DNA of 64,000 nucleotides, taken from contig CAYPYF010000003.1 of assembly GCA_964414675.1 (NCBI GenBank), forward strand, positions 11,696 to 75,695, written 5' to 3'. This document shows positions 47,383 through 53,016 of the stretch, one piece after another. The DNA is from an uncultured Dehalococcoidaceae bacterium (GTDB lineage Bacteria; Chloroflexota; Dehalococcoidia; UBA2979). Each line of letters begins with the position of its first letter. Within the stretch, counting starts at the first letter, position 1. The position numbers were made by a program, and so were the translations under genes. Below the pieces are notes generated by a model that had not been told where the DNA came from, made no database searches, and worked only from the letters and a program-made list of their open reading frames with translations.

Positions 47383-48876
47383 CTACGCGAGCCAGGCGCG
47401 CAGCCGCTCGACCGAGCCCGGGTGGCGCACGAGCGCCTGGTGCGAGACCGCGTCCGCGGGCTGGAAGACGTGGCGGTCCTGGATCGGGAAGTTCTTGCTG
47501 CCCTCGACCTCGTACACGCTGGCGGTGGGTACCATCAGGTCGTTCTTTCCACGCAGGATCAGGTCCTGGAGCGTGTCCGCGGCGTACGAGGCAAGTCCAC
47601 TGTCGGGCGCCGGCTCGAAGTCCGCGGCCAGCGCCCGATACGTCGCCTCGGCCTTCGGCGCGCCGTTCAGCGCCTTGAGGAACGCGCTGTCGGGCGCCAT
47701 CGCGGTCAGGCCCGGGAGGCCGCCTGCCGCGCCGACCGCGAGTTGCTTCACCACCGTGATCACCGTAGCCAGCACGTCCGACGCGCCCGCGTCCGGGAAC
47801 AGGTTGGCGATCGTCGTCGCCGTGTCGATGAGGTCCCCGAGGTGCTTCGGGTCAGCGAGGCGCGTGCCCGCATTCGGCGTGCCGAGGAACACGACGCGGT
47901 TCACGCGTACGCTCCCCGCCCCATCACTGCCGCCCGCGACGCCCTCGATCGTCGGCGGCTGCTCCGCCAGTACACGCGCCACCAGTCCCCCTCGAGAGTG
48001 CGCAATGACATCGAGGTCGAGCGTGACGCCGGCCGGTGCCTGCCGGAGCAACCACTCTGCATTCTCGCTCGGGTCCGCGGAGAGCGTCGGGTGGTCGAGC
48101 GCGATCACGCGACCCTCGTACCGTTCGTGGAGCCACTGGACGAAGTCCGGCGGGAGCGCACCGAACGCCGAGTGCGTCCGGCCGAGCGGCCCGTGGATCA
48201 GAAGCAGCGCGCGTCCCGCCGCGAGGCCTGCCCACGCCCCTGCCTCGATCGGTGTGACCTCGGACGAGGTGTAGTCGTCGGGCGTGAAGGTGCGCAGGCG
48301 GTACGGGCGCTTCGAGGCCTCCCAGCGGGACGCCAGCGCGTCACCCACCCGTCCCGCGATCGGATCGAGCCGCGGAAACACCAGCACCTTCAACACCCGG
48401 ATCGCGGCGGCGCCGAGGAGTCCCCGCGTCTCCGCCGGCCCCGCTGGAGGCGGGACATGGCGCGGCACCAGGTAGGTGCGCGACGCCCCGCCCCGTGTGG
48501 CCTCACCCGGTGCGCCAGCAGCCGCGATGCTCCACGATGCGACTCCCGACTCATCGACGGCGAGCAGCACTTGCTCCCAGTCAGGCCCGGGATCCGGGAC
48601 GGTGATCTCGATGGCGGGCTGTCCGAGGGCGGTGCTCCGCGTCACCCCGGCCCCGACCGGCACCTCGCGCGCCCCGACGATCTCGATCGTCTCCTGCGTC
48701 TGCATCGACTCGCCGGCGAGCACCGACTCGAGGACATCGCTCTCGCTGCTGGTGGAGCGCGTCCCGCCCGGACCGGCAGCACGCATCGTCACGCTTCCGG
48801 CCAGGCCCGGCGTGCGCAGGGTGGTACGTCCGATCTGCAGCGGCGTCCCGTTCGAGATCAGGTCAGGCATCGTCAA
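47383..48876 (-). CDS. PGAP1-like/DUF676 alpha/beta hydrolase (putative lipase/esterase) with roughly 200-aa N-terminal extension of unknown function
   Basis: Nucleophile elbow AHSRGGLVARV resembles the GHSMGG motif of PGAP1-like lipases. No signal peptide. It overlaps the upstream CHAT gene by 14 nt. Confidence 0.55.
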   Translation of the reverse strand: MTMPDLISNGTPLQIGRTTLRTPGLAGSVTMRAAGPGGTRSTSSESDVLESVLAGESMQTQETIEIVGAREVPVGAGVTRSTALGQPAIEITVPDPGPDWEQVLLAVDESGVASWSIAAAGAPGEATRGGASRTYLVPRHVPPPAGPAETRGLLGAAAIRVLKVLVFPRLDPIAGRVGDALASRWEASKRPYRLRTFTPDDYTSSEVTPIEAGAWAGLAAGRALLLIHGPLGRTHSAFGALPPDFVQWLHERYEGRVIALDHPTLSADPSENAEWLLRQAPAGVTLDLDVIAHSRGGLVARVLAEQPPTIEGVAGGSDGAGSVRVNRVVFLGTPNAGTRLADPKHLGDLIDTATTIANLFPDAGASDVLATVITVVKQLAVGAAGGLPGLTAMAPDSAFLKALNGAPKAEATYRALAADFEPAPDSGLASYAADTLQDLILRGKNDLMVPTASVYEVEGSKNFPIQDRHVFQPADAVSHQALVRHPGSVERLRAWLA

Positions 48877-51538
48877 TCCCTCCGTTCCTCTTCAGGCGCA
48901 AGGATGGGTGTCCATAGAAGAGGTACGCGAGGCTCGTCGCTGAGACGACATCCACGCCGTCCCCGAATGCCCCACGTTCACGCCTGAGGATCTCGGCAGG
49001 CGGGACGCCGGCGAAGCTCTGCTCGTAGAACCGCAGCGCGATCTCGTGGGCGACCGTGTCCTTGATCGACCACAGCGGGGCCAGCACGCCGGCCGCGCCC
49101 GAGAACAGGAACGCCTCGGCCATGCCCGCATAGTCGCCCAGGATGCGCTGGGCGCTGCCCACCTGGCAGGCGTTCAGGAACACGAACGGGGCTCGGGTGA
49201 ACGTGTGGCCGCGGATCTGCAGCGGATCGATCGTCTGCCCATCGGCGAGCACGAGGCCATGGAGCGTCGAGTTCGGGTCGTAGATCCCGTGCATCGCGAA
49301 GTGCAGCAGCTCCGCCGCCGGCTCACCGCCGAGGCAGGACAGCACGTCCGTCGCCAGTGCGTTGACCGCGACCGCGCCGTATCGCTCCTGGAGCGCCTCC
49401 GCCTCCGCCTCGGCCTCCAGAAGAGGGCTCCAGCCCGGCAGCGCGTACTGACCGCTGATCACCGCGATCGACGAGATCACCACCTCCGCCGGCGGCGGCA
49501 GCTTCGGACGGCGCGTACCCAGCACCCAGCGTCCCACGCACGTTTGCGCGCCGAGGAAGGGCGGCGCTTGCGGGTCGAGCCTGGGCTCCACGGTGGCGAG
49601 CTCCCACGGGACGTACGGCTCCTCCGACAGCAGGAAGATCGTCGGTGCGCGCCCTTCCGCACGGGCGTGGGCCGCGACCGAATCGAGCATCGACCAGAAC
49701 TGCGGTGGCAGTTGCTCGGCGACGGTGTGTCCAACCCCGAGGAGGTACGAGGCGAGGCCCGGCGTACCCTCGCGCGAGCCGACGCCGTCGACGAGCTGAC
49801 GCGCGAACTGGCCCGGCGCATCGCCGATGTCCGTCACCTCCAGCGCCCCGGGCGGCAGCGCCACATGCGGCGAGGTCATCGTCCAGCGGAGGCGGCCCCG
49901 CGACTCCTCGTCCTCCTCGATGACGACGGTCAGGTCCGCCACCGTGCGCTGCTGCGGGATCGCCACCATGCCGCGCTCGCCCTGCGCGGGTTCGTCCGCG
50001 GCGTCAAGGTCCGCCTCGGTCGCGACGGTCGTCACGTACCGCTTCGCGTAGCCGATCACAGCCCCCTCGAGGACGAAGAGCGCGCGGATGCTGCGGACAT
50101 CCGGGCCTTCGCCACGCAGCGCCAGCGGCACCAGCCGCACGTCCACCGTCGGGAAGCGCTGCCCCTCCGAGATCGTCAGGGAGCGGCGGAGTGCTGCTCC
50201 ATCGCTGACGACGAAGCCCGGCGTGTCCAGCTCGACGAGGAGTTCGTACGACTCGACGGCCGGCGAAGGCAGCTCAAACGCCTCGCCGGTCACGCCCGTG
50301 ACCTGCTCGGGTGACAGCCCGACCTCGAGTGTGAACTCTCGTCCCACGACGACCACCGGCGGGCAGTCCAGTAGCCCGTGCGCGCTGTACGTCGCCTCGC
50401 GTGACTCGCCCATGCCCGCGCTGGCGCCGGGCATGGGCGCGAGGGATGGCGTCGCACCGTTCGGCGTTACGGTTCCCACCGAGGTGGGGACGCCTGGCGT
50501 CGTCGTCGTCGGGGCTGGCGCTGGGGTGGAGACTGGCGCTGGCTGCGGTGCCGGCACGGGAGCAGACGGCGGCGTCGAGGATGGCGGGAGGGCGGTCGGT
50601 GCCGGGGCCTCGGGCGCATTGGCCCCACCACCATTCGGCGATGCCTCATCCCGGATGTCCTCGAGCCCGGGAGCCGATCCATGCCCGGCGGTCCGCCTCC
50701 GTCCGAGGAGTCCCGCGCCGGCGTTCACCACCGCGCCGATGCCCACGGGCGGAGTGCTCCAGCGCGCCCACGAGTTCCATGTGAGCGGCTCCCAGCCGAA
50801 CTGCTGGGCCAACACGCACCCGGAGAGCCCCACCATCAGGCCGCACAGCACCGCCATCATGATCCCGAACACCAGCCCGCGGCCAGCGTTCAGCACGCGC
50901 AACGCGATGAACAGCATGCCGGCGATGCCGGCGACCCCCACGAGCGCCGCGATCGCCCCGACTGGCGTCGTCAGTGGGTGAGCGCCGCCGACCTTCACCC
51001 ACCCGCTGATCGGCTCGCAGTCACCTGCGCTCACGACCACCCGGTACAGCCCGATGACCTGGAGGTGATCCCCGACGCGGATCGGCGGCTCGGCCACCCA
51101 TCGCCCATCCCGCGCCTCGAAGGACACGACATCCGTCGAGATCGGCCCGACAGACACGGTGACGGTCCCCGGAACCTTGGACGTACGGCCCACGCCCTGG
51201 ATCTCGAAGGCGACGGCCAGGCTGTCGTCCGCACGGATCGGGAGCGCGTTGTCGTAGTCCCCGAACGTATCGAGGGGGACGCCATCGATCGAGGCCTGGC
51301 ATTGCCACGGCGCACCCTGGGCGACCGCCTCGTGCGGGGCGGGAAGGGCCAGGGAGGCGAGGACCGCGCCAGCCAGTACGAAGGCCAGGGCGACGACCGG
51401 GGTGAGGCGGCGCACCACTCCGAGCACCGCGTCGGGCGCCCGGTGAGGCACAGGCGACGCAGGCGGCACTAGCCAGCGCATCAGTCGCTCCTCAGCGGGG
51501 CGCCCAGCGGCCGATCTGCCACGGCGGGGCGTACGCAT
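48863..51538 (-). CDS. Membrane-anchored CHAT-domain (caspase-like) protease: signal peptide, about 130-aa extracytoplasmic domain, two TM helices, Pro/Thr-rich linker, middle domain, C-terminal CHAT
   Basis: C-terminal LHFAMHG...FVFLNACQVGS carries the CHAT His/Cys dyad. N-terminal hydrophobic segments and a PAPTALPPSSTPPSAPVPAPQPAP linker are present. A possible alternative start is at 51481. Confidence 0.65.
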   Translation of the reverse strand: MRTPRRGRSAAGRPAEERLMRWLVPPASPVPHRAPDAVLGVVRRLTPVVALAFVLAGAVLASLALPAPHEAVAQGAPWQCQASIDGVPLDTFGDYDNALPIRADDSLAVAFEIQGVGRTSKVPGTVTVSVGPISTDVVSFEARDGRWVAEPPIRVGDHLQVIGLYRVVVSAGDCEPISGWVKVGGAHPLTTPVGAIAALVGVAGIAGMLFIALRVLNAGRGLVFGIMMAVLCGLMVGLSGCVLAQQFGWEPLTWNSWARWSTPPVGIGAVVNAGAGLLGRRRTAGHGSAPGLEDIRDEASPNGGGANAPEAPAPTALPPSSTPPSAPVPAPQPAPVSTPAPAPTTTTPGVPTSVGTVTPNGATPSLAPMPGASAGMGESREATYSAHGLLDCPPVVVVGREFTLEVGLSPEQVTGVTGEAFELPSPAVESYELLVELDTPGFVVSDGAALRRSLTISEGQRFPTVDVRLVPLALRGEGPDVRSIRALFVLEGAVIGYAKRYVTTVATEADLDAADEPAQGERGMVAIPQQRTVADLTVVIEEDEESRGRLRWTMTSPHVALPPGALEVTDIGDAPGQFARQLVDGVGSREGTPGLASYLLGVGHTVAEQLPPQFWSMLDSVAAHARAEGRAPTIFLLSEEPYVPWELATVEPRLDPQAPPFLGAQTCVGRWVLGTRRPKLPPPAEVVISSIAVISGQYALPGWSPLLEAEAEAEALQERYGAVAVNALATDVLSCLGGEPAAELLHFAMHGIYDPNSTLHGLVLADGQTIDPLQIRGHTFTRAPFVFLNACQVGSAQRILGDYAGMAEAFLFSGAAGVLAPLWSIKDTVAHEIALRFYEQSFAGVPPAEILRRERGAFGDGVDVVSATSLAYLFYGHPSLRLKRNGGIDDA

Positions 51539-51539
51539 G

Positions 51540-52493
51540 TCAGCGGGGGATCACCAGGATCTGGCCCACCCGGATCACATTGATGTCCACGATCTGGTTC
51601 GCTGCCGCGATTGCCGCGACGGTGACGCCGAATCGCACCGCGATGGACCCGAGGGTGTCGCGCGGGCGCACCTCGTAGTGCTGTCCGGGCACGGTGAGTA
51701 CCTGGCCGGTCTCGATGAGGTCCGGGTTCGCGTCCACCAGTGCCGGGAGCGCGACGCCCAGGCGCTGCGCGACCTCCACCAGCCGGTCGCCTGCCTGTAC
51801 GGTGTACTGGCTGATCGAGGTCGCAGGCGCCTCCACCTCCCGCGTTCCGATCGTGGTCGCAGTGACCGTGGCGCGGTCAATCGTCGAACTGCGTTCGCCC
51901 TCGACCCCGGCGAGCACGAACGATGCGGCGACGGTCCCCTTTTCGACGCGATCCCCCCGGACGGCGAGCGCCGTGGAGCCGAAGCCCTCCAGGTGGAGGT
52001 GGGAGTGGCAGGCGCAGCTGGAGTGATACTCGTGTCGCCGAGGATCCCCGGCCCCGTGCTGCTGGCCGCATCGCCCCGTGGGCCAGTGCTGGGGCTCCGC
52101 CGGGCCGAGCGCCCCGATCTGCACGCGCCCGGCTCCCAGCACGGATCCTGGCCCCACCAGGACGGGGTCGAGGTGGCCGTAGAGGATGCGCAGGCCGGTC
52201 TCGATCCAGCGGTCCGAGCCCTCGCGGCGCTGCAATGTCAACTGCACCACCAGTCCGCCTTCCTCGATCCGCCCGCTCCGGCAGGCCGGACGTACTGACT
52301 CGACGACCGCGCGCACCGGCGGGCCGTCGGTGCGCGCCTCGAAGAACACCGGTGTACCCCGGCTGTCCGCGAGCACGTCCATGTCGCACGACCGGTTGCC
52401 GCCGTAGGGACGGTGGTGCCCATGCGAGGACGAGGTCGTCACTACCGCCGGGATGTCGAAGGGAGAAAGGATCGAGAGTGTCGGCATGTTCAA
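51540..52493 (-). CDS. M23 (LytM-type) metallopeptidase with two C-terminal LysM domains; no obvious signal peptide
   Basis: YGHL...HLHLEG M23 motifs. Two LysM repeats (YTVQAGDRLVEVAQRLGV and YEVRPRDTLGSIAVRFGV). Confidence 0.7.
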   Translation of the reverse strand: MNMPTLSILSPFDIPAVVTTSSSHGHHRPYGGNRSCDMDVLADSRGTPVFFEARTDGPPVRAVVESVRPACRSGRIEEGGLVVQLTLQRREGSDRWIETGLRILYGHLDPVLVGPGSVLGAGRVQIGALGPAEPQHWPTGRCGQQHGAGDPRRHEYHSSCACHSHLHLEGFGSTALAVRGDRVEKGTVAASFVLAGVEGERSSTIDRATVTATTIGTREVEAPATSISQYTVQAGDRLVEVAQRLGVALPALVDANPDLIETGQVLTVPGQHYEVRPRDTLGSIAVRFGVTVAAIAAANQIVDINVIRVGQILVIPR

Positions 52494-52601
52494 CCCCTAT
52501 CGGTGCTGTGGATCGGGCTTGCGGGTGCGCGCGGTTCCGTTCAGCGCACAGGCCGCGCCCGGTCGCCTAGACTCGCCCCGGGCGGCGCGAGACGAGGCAA
52601 C

Positions 52602-53000
52602 ATGACCGAGACTCCGGCCGTGACTCGGCCGCCGAGGCTGTCCGAGGCGACGATTCAGTCGCTGCTCACGTACGTCGACGAGGAGTCCCTGCGCACCACG
52701 AGGCCTCGCACGTCGGCGCCATGGACCTGGGCGCCTCGGACGCTGCGCGTCGGGGCCGTCACCCTGGGCCGCGATATCTGCTTTCGCCCCGGCGCGTTCC
52801 GCGAAGCGGACGTGCGAGGCCTCGCGCTGATCGCGCACGAGTGCACGCATGTCCGGCAGTACCGCGAACTCGGCGCGGCGCGATTCCTGCTCCGCTATCT
52901 CTGGGGGGCGATCCGCGTGCGTTTCGTTCATGATCTCCATCCGCTCGAACTCGAACCGCAGGCGGTGCAGGTCCGTGCCCGCACCAGCCTCACCCTCTGA
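52602..53000 (+). CDS. DUF4157-like zincin-type putative metallopeptidase domain protein
   Basis: IAHECTHVRQY matches the HExxHxxQ signature of DUF4157. Divergently transcribed from the CHAT operon. Confidence 0.5.
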   Translation: MTETPAVTRPPRLSEATIQSLLTYVDEESLRTTRPRTSAPWTWAPRTLRVGAVTLGRDICFRPGAFREADVRGLALIAHECTHVRQYRELGAARFLLRYLWGAIRVRFVHDLHPLELEPQAVQVRARTSLTL

Positions 53001-53016
53001 GCGCCGCCGCCCGCCG

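Follow-up and report, generated by a model that had tools for sequence, protein, structure and literature searches.

A gene on the minus strand at 48863..51538 of a 64,000-nucleotide stretch from an uncultured Dehalococcoidaceae bacterium (phylum Chloroflexota; GenBank assembly GCA_964414675.1, contig CAYPYF010000003.1, positions 11,696 to 75,695 of the forward strand; hereafter the window) encodes a putative caspase-fold protease of the CHAT type, carried on a membrane-embedded N-terminal region. Our favoured reading, which we hold at a probability of roughly 0.55, is that the product is a polytopic CHAT protein with its N-terminus outside and its C-terminus inside the cell, that it is paired with a lipase-like hydrolase of the DUF7379 family encoded immediately downstream, and that the pair would serve as a conflict or cell-suicide effector whose input comes through the membrane module. 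The sensor-like topology proposed in an initial annotation of the gene holds in outline, in that a signal peptide, an outer domain, membrane helices and a tethered CHAT domain are all present, while its count of the helices and its argument from the linker have to be revised. Throughout, residues are numbered on the 891-residue translation of the longest open reading frame (ORF), so that the ATG at 51481 is M20; P-numbers denote database representatives and L-numbers genomic or metagenomic loci. The three genes of the operon, with the protein features placed below by window coordinates, lie on the minus strand.

Membrane topology

The side of the membrane on which the protease works depends on the number of helices that follow the signal peptide: once that peptide is cleaved, three spans put the C-terminus, and with it the protease, in the cytoplasm, while only two would leave the protease outside the cell. 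We provisionally consider an N-out/C-in topology, in which the linker, the second immunoglobulin (Ig)-like domain and the CHAT domain would all be cytoplasmic, to be probable, because the third helix is hydrophobic in relatives, because lysine and arginine (K/R) are unevenly distributed about it and because three helices appear in the AlphaFold model. It is further supported by the nature of the domains fused elsewhere to the module or to the protease (TIR, kinase, HEAT, TCAD7), which fit such a placement.

Read from the N-terminus, the sequence comprises a signal peptide, a domain of about 115 amino acids (aa), hydrophobic helices, a Pro-rich linker and the CHAT domain. Its Kyte-Doolittle (KD) profile peaks at aa 47-65 (the signal-peptide core), 195-213 and 226-244, and these peaks coincide exactly with the hydrophobic core preceding an AVA-QG site and with the two transmembrane (TM) helices that had been annotated. 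The same layout is found in P0001, P0003 and P0004, and about 25 among 150 listed matches to a profile of the membrane module have the full architecture of the window protein; as judged from these sequences, the layout is conserved and no chance feature.

Helix A (aa 192-217; 50888..50965; KD 2.51) would run from outside to inside and is followed by a basic loop, RVLNAGRG; helix B (aa 222-246; 50801..50875; KD 2.35) would return from inside to outside and ends in QQFG, of which the QQ is near-invariant. Both are also helices in the structural model. What had been overlooked beside these two is a probable third membrane helix, the weakly hydrophobic helix C (aa 254-284; 50687..50779; KD 1.26), with a Trp-rich start, a core of VGIGAVVNAGAGLLG and RRR at its inner end, which emerges from family comparison, charge bias and AlphaFold. 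The AlphaFold2 model of window aa 71-300, made with a 41-sequence alignment (predicted local distance difference test, pLDDT, 91; predicted template-modelling score, pTM, 0.80), consists of a beta-sandwich and then three consecutive helices (26, 25 and 31 residues), with 4 residues between the first two and 7 between the last two, and over aa ~251-290 the pLDDT per 10-residue block runs 95, 93, 87 and 73. A 31-residue helix that begins 7 residues past helix B and stretches from a Trp-rich belt to RRR has the look of a third span, and from the loop lengths in the model we infer that it would pack against helices A and B.

The same element can be followed through the relatives of the module. The mature N-terminal regions of four proteins, the window protein and three homologues, were combined into a profile, and a scan of 1.84 billion representatives with it gave matches at E <= 1e-3 in at least 309 cluster representatives, of which 103 reached E <= 1e-10; word-indexed homologue searches, swamped by low-complexity words, had given seven matches each for the full protein and for the module alignment, and it was the exhaustive profile search that exposed the family. 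The conserved order, with its motifs kept in the 41-sequence alignment, is a Cys, GVGLY, a further Cys, the motif W-x-K/R-V-x-G-R-S-P-L/F-T-T, helix A, the basic loop, helix B with QQFG, a third hydrophobic stretch and an Arg/Lys cluster. Members that stand alone have a clear TM helix past QQFG and then R/K, for example VVVVVIAAVVLAVVGVV...GRKKRSED in P0041, and P0060 likewise has a hydrophobic third helix with an R/K end (...APRREDPGEERRRR). The KD value of the third helix reaches 3.5 in relatives, and mean 17-residue hydropathy over 72 anchored members is 2.15 for helix A, 1.77 for helix B and 1.79 for helix C; among the 23 members fused to CHAT, helix C is less hydrophobic, with a mean of 1.41. 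In the same 23 members K/R counts are 3.0 in the loop between helices A and B, 0.22 in the loop between B and C and 2.22 in the first 15 aa after helix C, and the count of acidic residues (D/E) in the A-B loop across the family is 0.09.

Hydropathy alone would give the two-helix model implied by the helix count of the initial annotation, with A and B as the only spans, an interfacial or soluble third segment, and the linker, the second Ig-like domain and the CHAT domain outside, acting on envelope or secreted proteins in the manner of the periplasmic TPR-CHAT protein DdvA or of the secreted clan-CD gingipains. Several facts speak for such an arrangement and against a cytoplasmic C-terminus. 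Helix C of the window protein is itself marginal (its simple 15-residue Hessa-scale sum is +3.45), and it is no more hydrophobic than some buried segments of the CHAT domain; the metagenomic protein P0148 (823 aa), which either has another number of spans or carries an intracellular M4 effector, joins the module to a C-terminal FTP propeptide and M4 thermolysin of a normally secreted type; the operon encodes a peptidoglycan-binding LysM protein; surface proteins often have Ig-like domains and Pro/Thr linkers; and periplasmic CHAT domains exist, as in DdvA (PMC11506125). We nevertheless regard the two-helix model as unlikely, since relatives have a plain TM helix in the position homologous to the third segment, K/R are tenfold higher after than before it, and AlphaFold places a 31-residue helix just past helix B. 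The protease, moreover, occurs elsewhere on kinase, HEAT and TCAD7 N-termini that lack any TM-grade segment, the module is also fused to TIR, and neither the DUF7379 protein nor the LysM protein has a signal peptide.

Many members of the module family are proteins of 220-450 aa with little beyond the module. Seven stand-alone members (225-255 aa) gave no credible Pfam match, the nearest being a sub-threshold FlgE_3rd (E 0.043) in P0035, and the ectodomain with its three helices apparently constitutes a conserved module that is uncatalogued, with no Pfam entry; the fold of ectodomain plus three-helix bundle matched no described sensor family. In other relatives FecR domains stand N-terminal to the module (P0097 and P0102, the former with an N-terminus that by eye is lipobox-like), and TIR_2 (P0091, E 9e-16), a zinc ribbon (P0090) or another CHAT domain (P0089) stand C-terminal to it, further fusions involving SH3-like domains.

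A subgroup of stand-alone proteins of about 340 aa, recognisable by QQFGRLQLSY, consists of single genes (L055 6001-7023, L057 6001-7005, L058 2170-3174), which in several metagenome-assembled genomes (MAGs) sit between trmD-rplS-lepB and radical-SAM CofH-like genes. This synteny suggests a core membrane function unrelated to defence.

The tethered protease and its cassette

Between the membrane and the protease runs a low-complexity linker rich in Pro, Thr and Ala (aa ~285-375; 50414..50686), variable in length among homologues and accompanied by a drop in pLDDT at both model edges. A Pro/Thr-rich linker had been annotated here and does exist, most clearly at about aa 305-350, but its description as typical of extracytoplasmic actinobacterial proteins fails on both counts: the closest relatives are Chloroflexota MAGs, and the membrane-free TCAD7 relative P0005 is equally Pro-rich at this place, so that the linker is uninformative on compartment.

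The linker leads into a second Ig-like beta-sandwich (aa ~383-505; 50024..50392) and a two-lobed CHAT domain of the separase/Csx29 type (aa ~536-884; 48887..49933), with His750 at codon 49289-49291 and Cys791 at codon 49166-49168. The AlphaFold2 model of aa 370-891, built with 26 sequences of database proteins (pLDDT 84, pTM 0.86), shows the Ig-like sandwich, then a lobe of strands and helices and then a caspase-like lobe, that is, a caspase-hemoglobinase fold in a separase-like two-lobe arrangement. The middle domain of about 250 aa proposed earlier is accordingly present as a region, of which the first part is the second Ig-like sandwich and the remainder the N-terminal lobe of the CHAT fold itself. 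The annotated CHAT domain is recovered by Pfam as the only domain found in the protein (PF12770; 70.4 bits against a cut-off of 24, E 2.3e-19, aa 702-856), and in the model it appears complete and two-lobed, larger than the 155 residues that the Pfam match covers. The catalytic dyad, H750 (in HFAMHG) and C791 (in LNACQVG), is invariant in 41 aligned and 26 database relatives, and by this intact dyad the domain is predicted to be catalytically competent.

The second Ig-like domain and CHAT recur together as a cassette in about 50 genomes, and in about 25 of 50 loci the cassette occurs without the membrane module. In nearly all of these module-free loci, with L013 and L032 as exceptions, nothing TM-grade precedes the cassette. 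Three of ten module-free N-termini that were scanned have Pfam matches, to a protein kinase (L023), HEAT (L040) and TCAD7 (L026), and a TCAD7 N-terminus is also recorded for P0005/L004. The N-terminal domains on the cassette are interchangeable. The distribution of the family is wide, thin and patchy: almost all carriers are uncultured Chloroflexota or Actinomycetota, and a few belong to other soil phyla. The one cultured carrier of a cassette relative that the genome scan turned up is Rhizocola hellebori NBRC 109834 (L053), which has the module-free form. Extra CHAT or caspase paralogues cluster around many cassette loci.

Six loci of Chloroflexia MAGs (L019, L020, L021, L027, L045 and L050) have module-CHAT genes without DUF7379 and CHAT-like paralogues 1-6 kb upstream. 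In L019, the only one of these scanned with Pfam, the paralogues are a gene for CHAT with a PD40 beta-propeller and a gene for TCAD7, DUF7363 and CHAT. In L034 and L003 the neighbour is instead a caspase gene of the Peptidase_C14 type. Taken together, these groups look like protease clusters or cascades.

The partner hydrolase

The gene that follows the protease (47383..48870) encodes a protein of 495 aa, with an N-domain of about 215 aa and a lipase-like alpha/beta-hydrolase domain, which matches Pfam DUF7379 (PF24096) at 179 bits against a cut-off of 33 (E 1.3e-52). Its probable ATG at 48870 overlaps the stop codon of the CHAT gene by 8 nt (window 48863-48870), and the identical 8-nt overlap in the two closest full-length relatives (L001 10531-10538, L002 10549-10556) suggests translational coupling and a fixed stoichiometry. 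An HG motif, S292 (in HSRGG), D444 and H477 are invariant in 19 aligned orthologues, and the family profile matches PDB 7x2p_A, a 'putative lipase', at E 3.4e-8; the protein is predicted to be a lipase-like Ser-Asp-His hydrolase. None of 26 orthologues checked has a signal peptide or a membrane segment, and from the absence of export signals the hydrolase is predicted to be cytoplasmic. In a set of 50 genomic and four metagenomic loci, DUF7379 is the next gene after the cassette in about 28, of which 6 have the module and about 22 lack it.

The initial annotation had asked which neighbour the protease could cleave. With a C-in topology and three helices, the first candidate for a substrate or partner would be the coupled lipase-like hydrolase, being conserved beside the cassette, devoid of a signal peptide and joined to it by the 8-nt gene overlap. 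At the extreme N-terminus of DUF7379 there is a motif, (G)x(T/V)(L)R(T/S)PGL(A/E)G, present in the window (48795-48870; TLRTPGLAG) and in 25 orthologues in L001-L053, which the paired CHAT domain may recognise or cleave. A literature search found no paper mentioning DUF7379.

In L039 (5812-9261) a single unbroken ORF of 1149 codons covers a second-Ig domain, CHAT and DUF7379, and is either a natural protease-hydrolase fusion or an assembly frameshift; if a true fusion, it would be strong evidence for both proteins acting in one complex.

Start codon, signal peptide and ectodomain

The longest ORF of the CHAT gene has 891 codons, and its frame (48863-51538) is the only one at the locus with coding-type composition, the GC content at third codon positions being ~0.86 over its full length. 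Its first ATG, at 51538, lies 1 nt past the stop of the upstream gene and has no ribosome-binding site. The ATG at 51481 (MRWL...) is preceded by a GAGGAG Shine-Dalgarno sequence with a spacer of 6 nt; L002, the closest full-length relative (65% identity), has GAGGAG five nt before its own MRWL start, with no other ATG in the interval back to the upstream stop. On the strength of this shared arrangement the 891-aa start was dropped in favour of M20, which is the most likely translation start and gives a product of 872 aa. Translation would thus probably leave out the first 19 codons, which are very rich in Arg; of the Arg-rich n-region of the initial annotation, the RR past M20 remains.

The signal peptide, M20-A73 (51320..51481; KD 2.45), lies entirely after the revised start, and its hydrophobic segment is therefore not lost to it, as it would have been with a start further downstream. 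It has the make-up of a Sec (SPase I) signal peptide: an n-region with RR, an h-region of PVVALAFVLAGAVLASLAL and a c-region, PAPHEAVA-QG, with predicted cleavage at AVA-QG. The AxA-Q site is kept at the same place in P0001, P0003, P0004 and L010, and of the 119 complete N-termini in the module family, 114 include a hydrophobic segment like that of a signal peptide and 115 an AxA-like motif. Export by the Tat pathway, which the RR of the n-region might call to mind, was rejected: the twin-arginine context is not kept in P0001 or P0004.

The extracytoplasmic domain that follows is an Ig-like beta-sandwich (aa 74-190; 50969..51319) ending in PLTTP, somewhat smaller, at about 115 aa, than the roughly 130 aa annotated for it. 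Its C80 and C174 are near-invariant, and the domain is predicted to be disulfide-capable. The similarity is to generic Ig-like domains only, with no recognisable ligand site.

The ectodomain profile also matches 12-13 tandem stretches in the large surface proteins P0034 (1682 aa) and P0140 (1087 aa), which places the ectodomain in a broad class of repeated Ig-like surface domains. P0034 has a Por_Secre_tail match and P0140 a CHU_C type IX secretion signal domain.

The operon and its neighbourhood

The CHAT gene is the middle one of a co-oriented three-gene unit, LysM-CHAT-DUF7379. The upstream gene (51540..52487) ends 1 nt before the ATG at 51538 and encodes 315 aa, a domain of 215 aa followed by two C-terminal LysM domains. 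The Pfam LysM match has E 8.8e-22, and PDB matches are limited to the LysM part; the 215-aa N-domain matched nothing by Pfam or PDB sequence search. The protein has no signal peptide, which is odd for one that binds peptidoglycan. By eye, His-rich motifs in the N-domain (SSSHGHH, YGHLD, SHLHLE) are reminiscent of M23/LytM; an identity as an M23 peptidase is not claimed, such by-eye motifs being without support from Pfam and PDB sequence searches.

Canonical endolysins lack signal peptides. Together with the LysM protein, which likewise has none and whose stop lies 1 nt from the longest CHAT ORF, the tight packing and common orientation of the three genes, and the recurrence of the trio in L002 and L010, might suggest a lysis cassette, that is, a regulated autolysis unit of endolysin-like LysM protein, membrane module and hydrolase, in which the module aids release and CHAT is the trigger. 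We think this very unlikely. Of about 50 loci, only three (the window, L002 and L010) have the LysM gene beside CHAT, the N-terminal 215 aa of its product match no hydrolase family by Pfam or PDB, M23-like motifs being seen by eye only, and nothing points to pore formation by the module.

Pfam matches for nine flanking genes (43.6-57.1 kb) comprise LysM, DUF7379, M20 peptidase, GNAT, methyltransferase, luciferase-like, alpha/beta hydrolase and GMC oxidoreductase; no extracytoplasmic function (ECF) sigma factor was found among these nine.

In the gap of about 520 nt upstream of the operon (52494-53016) no ORF passes the composition filter, and a scan for the sigma-70 consensus found no promoter-like site; a terminator scan of the operon likewise gave nothing informative.

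Relation to known systems

A close parallel is with the MoxR-vWA (VMAP) ternary conflict systems, in which a caspase-superfamily domain, where one occurs, always has a neighbouring alpha/beta-hydrolase gene (Kaur et al., eLife 2020; PMC7159879). Like these, the window combines a CHAT/caspase-fold protease with an adjacent alpha/beta-hydrolase gene; relatives of its cassette carry TCAD7 (Pfam PF19973), of the 'ternary complex associated' domain family, and the phyletic range, Chloroflexota and Actinomycetota, is similar. Unlike these, the window protease has a signal peptide, Ig-like ectodomain and three-helix (3TM) module joined to it in place of a VMAP, and the pair is free-standing, in a two- or three-gene operon, with no MoxR, vWA or VMAP-C detected among the nine neighbours scanned. 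By analogy, the window pair resembles the VMAP caspase/hydrolase effector pair, for which a role in conflict or cell suicide has been proposed; with MoxR, vWA and VMAP components all missing from those nine neighbours, it would not be a member of a VMAP system.

DdvA (Sci Adv 2024; PMC11506125) is likewise a membrane-anchored CHAT-fold protein on a long flexible linker, for which trans-acting proteolysis between neighbouring protomers has been proposed. It differs in being single-pass, with a cytoplasmic zinc anti-sigma domain, TPR repeats, CHAT outside and an incomplete active site, whereas the window protein has a signal peptide, an Ig-like ectodomain, three helices, an intact dyad and a CHAT domain that is most likely inside; no TPR or anti-sigma domain was matched in it by Pfam. 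Csx29, the TPR-CHAT protein of type III-E Craspase, and eukaryotic separase differ in another way, since the window protein has an Ig-like sandwich where their TPR or helical N-terminal region sits, and the NCBIfam Csx29 model (NF041237) scores 11.7 bits on it against a cut-off of 300; nor is a CRISPR context apparent, although no search aimed at one was made.

FecR-type anti-sigma factors are membrane-bound sensors, in which a small domain lies outside the cytoplasm and the output is tethered inside. The window protein would share with such sensors an outside domain, membrane helices and a cytoplasmic output, and FecR itself is found N-terminal to the module in relatives; it differs in that the output is a caspase-fold protease (TIR in relatives) and not a kinase or a sigma-binding domain. 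A literature search for 3TM proteins with a caspase found nothing relevant.

A possible mechanism

Under the favoured reading the ectodomain would face the envelope and the protease would hang from the inner face of the membrane by a flexible tether of about 90 aa. We strongly infer that protease and DUF7379 hydrolase would meet on the cytoplasmic face; most likely the membrane module would serve as their input, in place of MoxR/vWA/VMAP. Since a long disordered tether cannot relay a conformational change, activation would proceed by clustering or dimerisation: speculatively, an envelope or extracellular cue would cluster the module, and this would bring the tethered CHAT domains together. Such induced proximity is the usual way in which caspase-fold enzymes are switched on. 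Active CHAT might then, again speculatively, cleave DUF7379 (removing its N-domain or cutting at the N-terminal motif), its own linker, or both, and the lipase activity so released at the membrane might damage it, with an outcome of the abortive-infection or programmed-death type.

A number of observations weigh against this account. About 18 of about 25 module-bearing CHAT loci have no DUF7379 directly downstream, so the partner is not obligatory for the membrane form; neither MoxR nor vWA stands nearby in the scanned 43.6-57.1 kb; PADLOC gave no meaningful defence-system match for the three operon proteins; stand-alone module genes occur in housekeeping synteny (trmD-rplS-lepB / cofH), and the module, which is not by itself a defence marker, may simply be an anchor. 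What is sensed, what is cleaved and what biological role results are all speculative.

The anchor role just named can be extended to an explanation in its own right, namely that the module merely localises the protease and its lipase-like partner, control being exerted otherwise (by substrate availability, expression or another cytoplasmic input), or that the pair is engaged in housekeeping processing of membrane proteins or lipoproteins. We hold this to be possible but doubtful. The conserved housekeeping neighbourhoods of stand-alone module genes, the generic Ig-like character of an ectodomain without a recognisable ligand site, the decoupling of ectodomain from protease by some 90 aa of disordered tether, the metabolic surroundings in the window (M20 peptidase, GNAT, methyltransferase, luciferase-like, GMC oxidoreductase) and the negative PADLOC result all agree with it. 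It accounts less readily for a cassette that swaps its N-terminal domains (module, kinase, HEAT, TCAD7) as do the sensor or adaptor positions of conflict systems, for fusions of the module to TIR and to divergent CHAT domains, for the extra CHAT/caspase paralogues around many loci, for a distribution that is patchy across phyla in a family almost confined to MAGs, and for a caspase/hydrolase pairing that is otherwise known from conflict systems.

Returning to the effector pair with membrane-module input, a bolder form of it would make the Ig-like-3TM module an unrecognised surface receptor, in which clustering by ligand switches on tethered cytoplasmic death effectors (CHAT and its lipase-like partner; TIR in relatives) on a cue such as phage adsorption, wall damage or a signal from a neighbouring cell. 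This proposal, receptor and cue together, is a tentative one and rather improbable.

Implications

The reach of the protease is set by its topology, three helices implying targets in the cytoplasm or at the inner membrane face. What is new is that the caspase/hydrolase pair, described earlier only in MoxR-vWA ternary systems, also occurs as a free-standing cassette with a swappable N-terminus. Likewise, the Ig-like-3TM module, with at least 309 representatives, no Pfam entry and varied fusions, merits a family definition of its own. Were the receptor proposal true, it would be a prokaryotic counterpart of signalling from death receptor to caspase, operating without a nucleotide second messenger or an NTPase; and if the ectodomain gates the protease, bacteria would have here a simple means of linking the cell surface, across the membrane, to a caspase-type effector.

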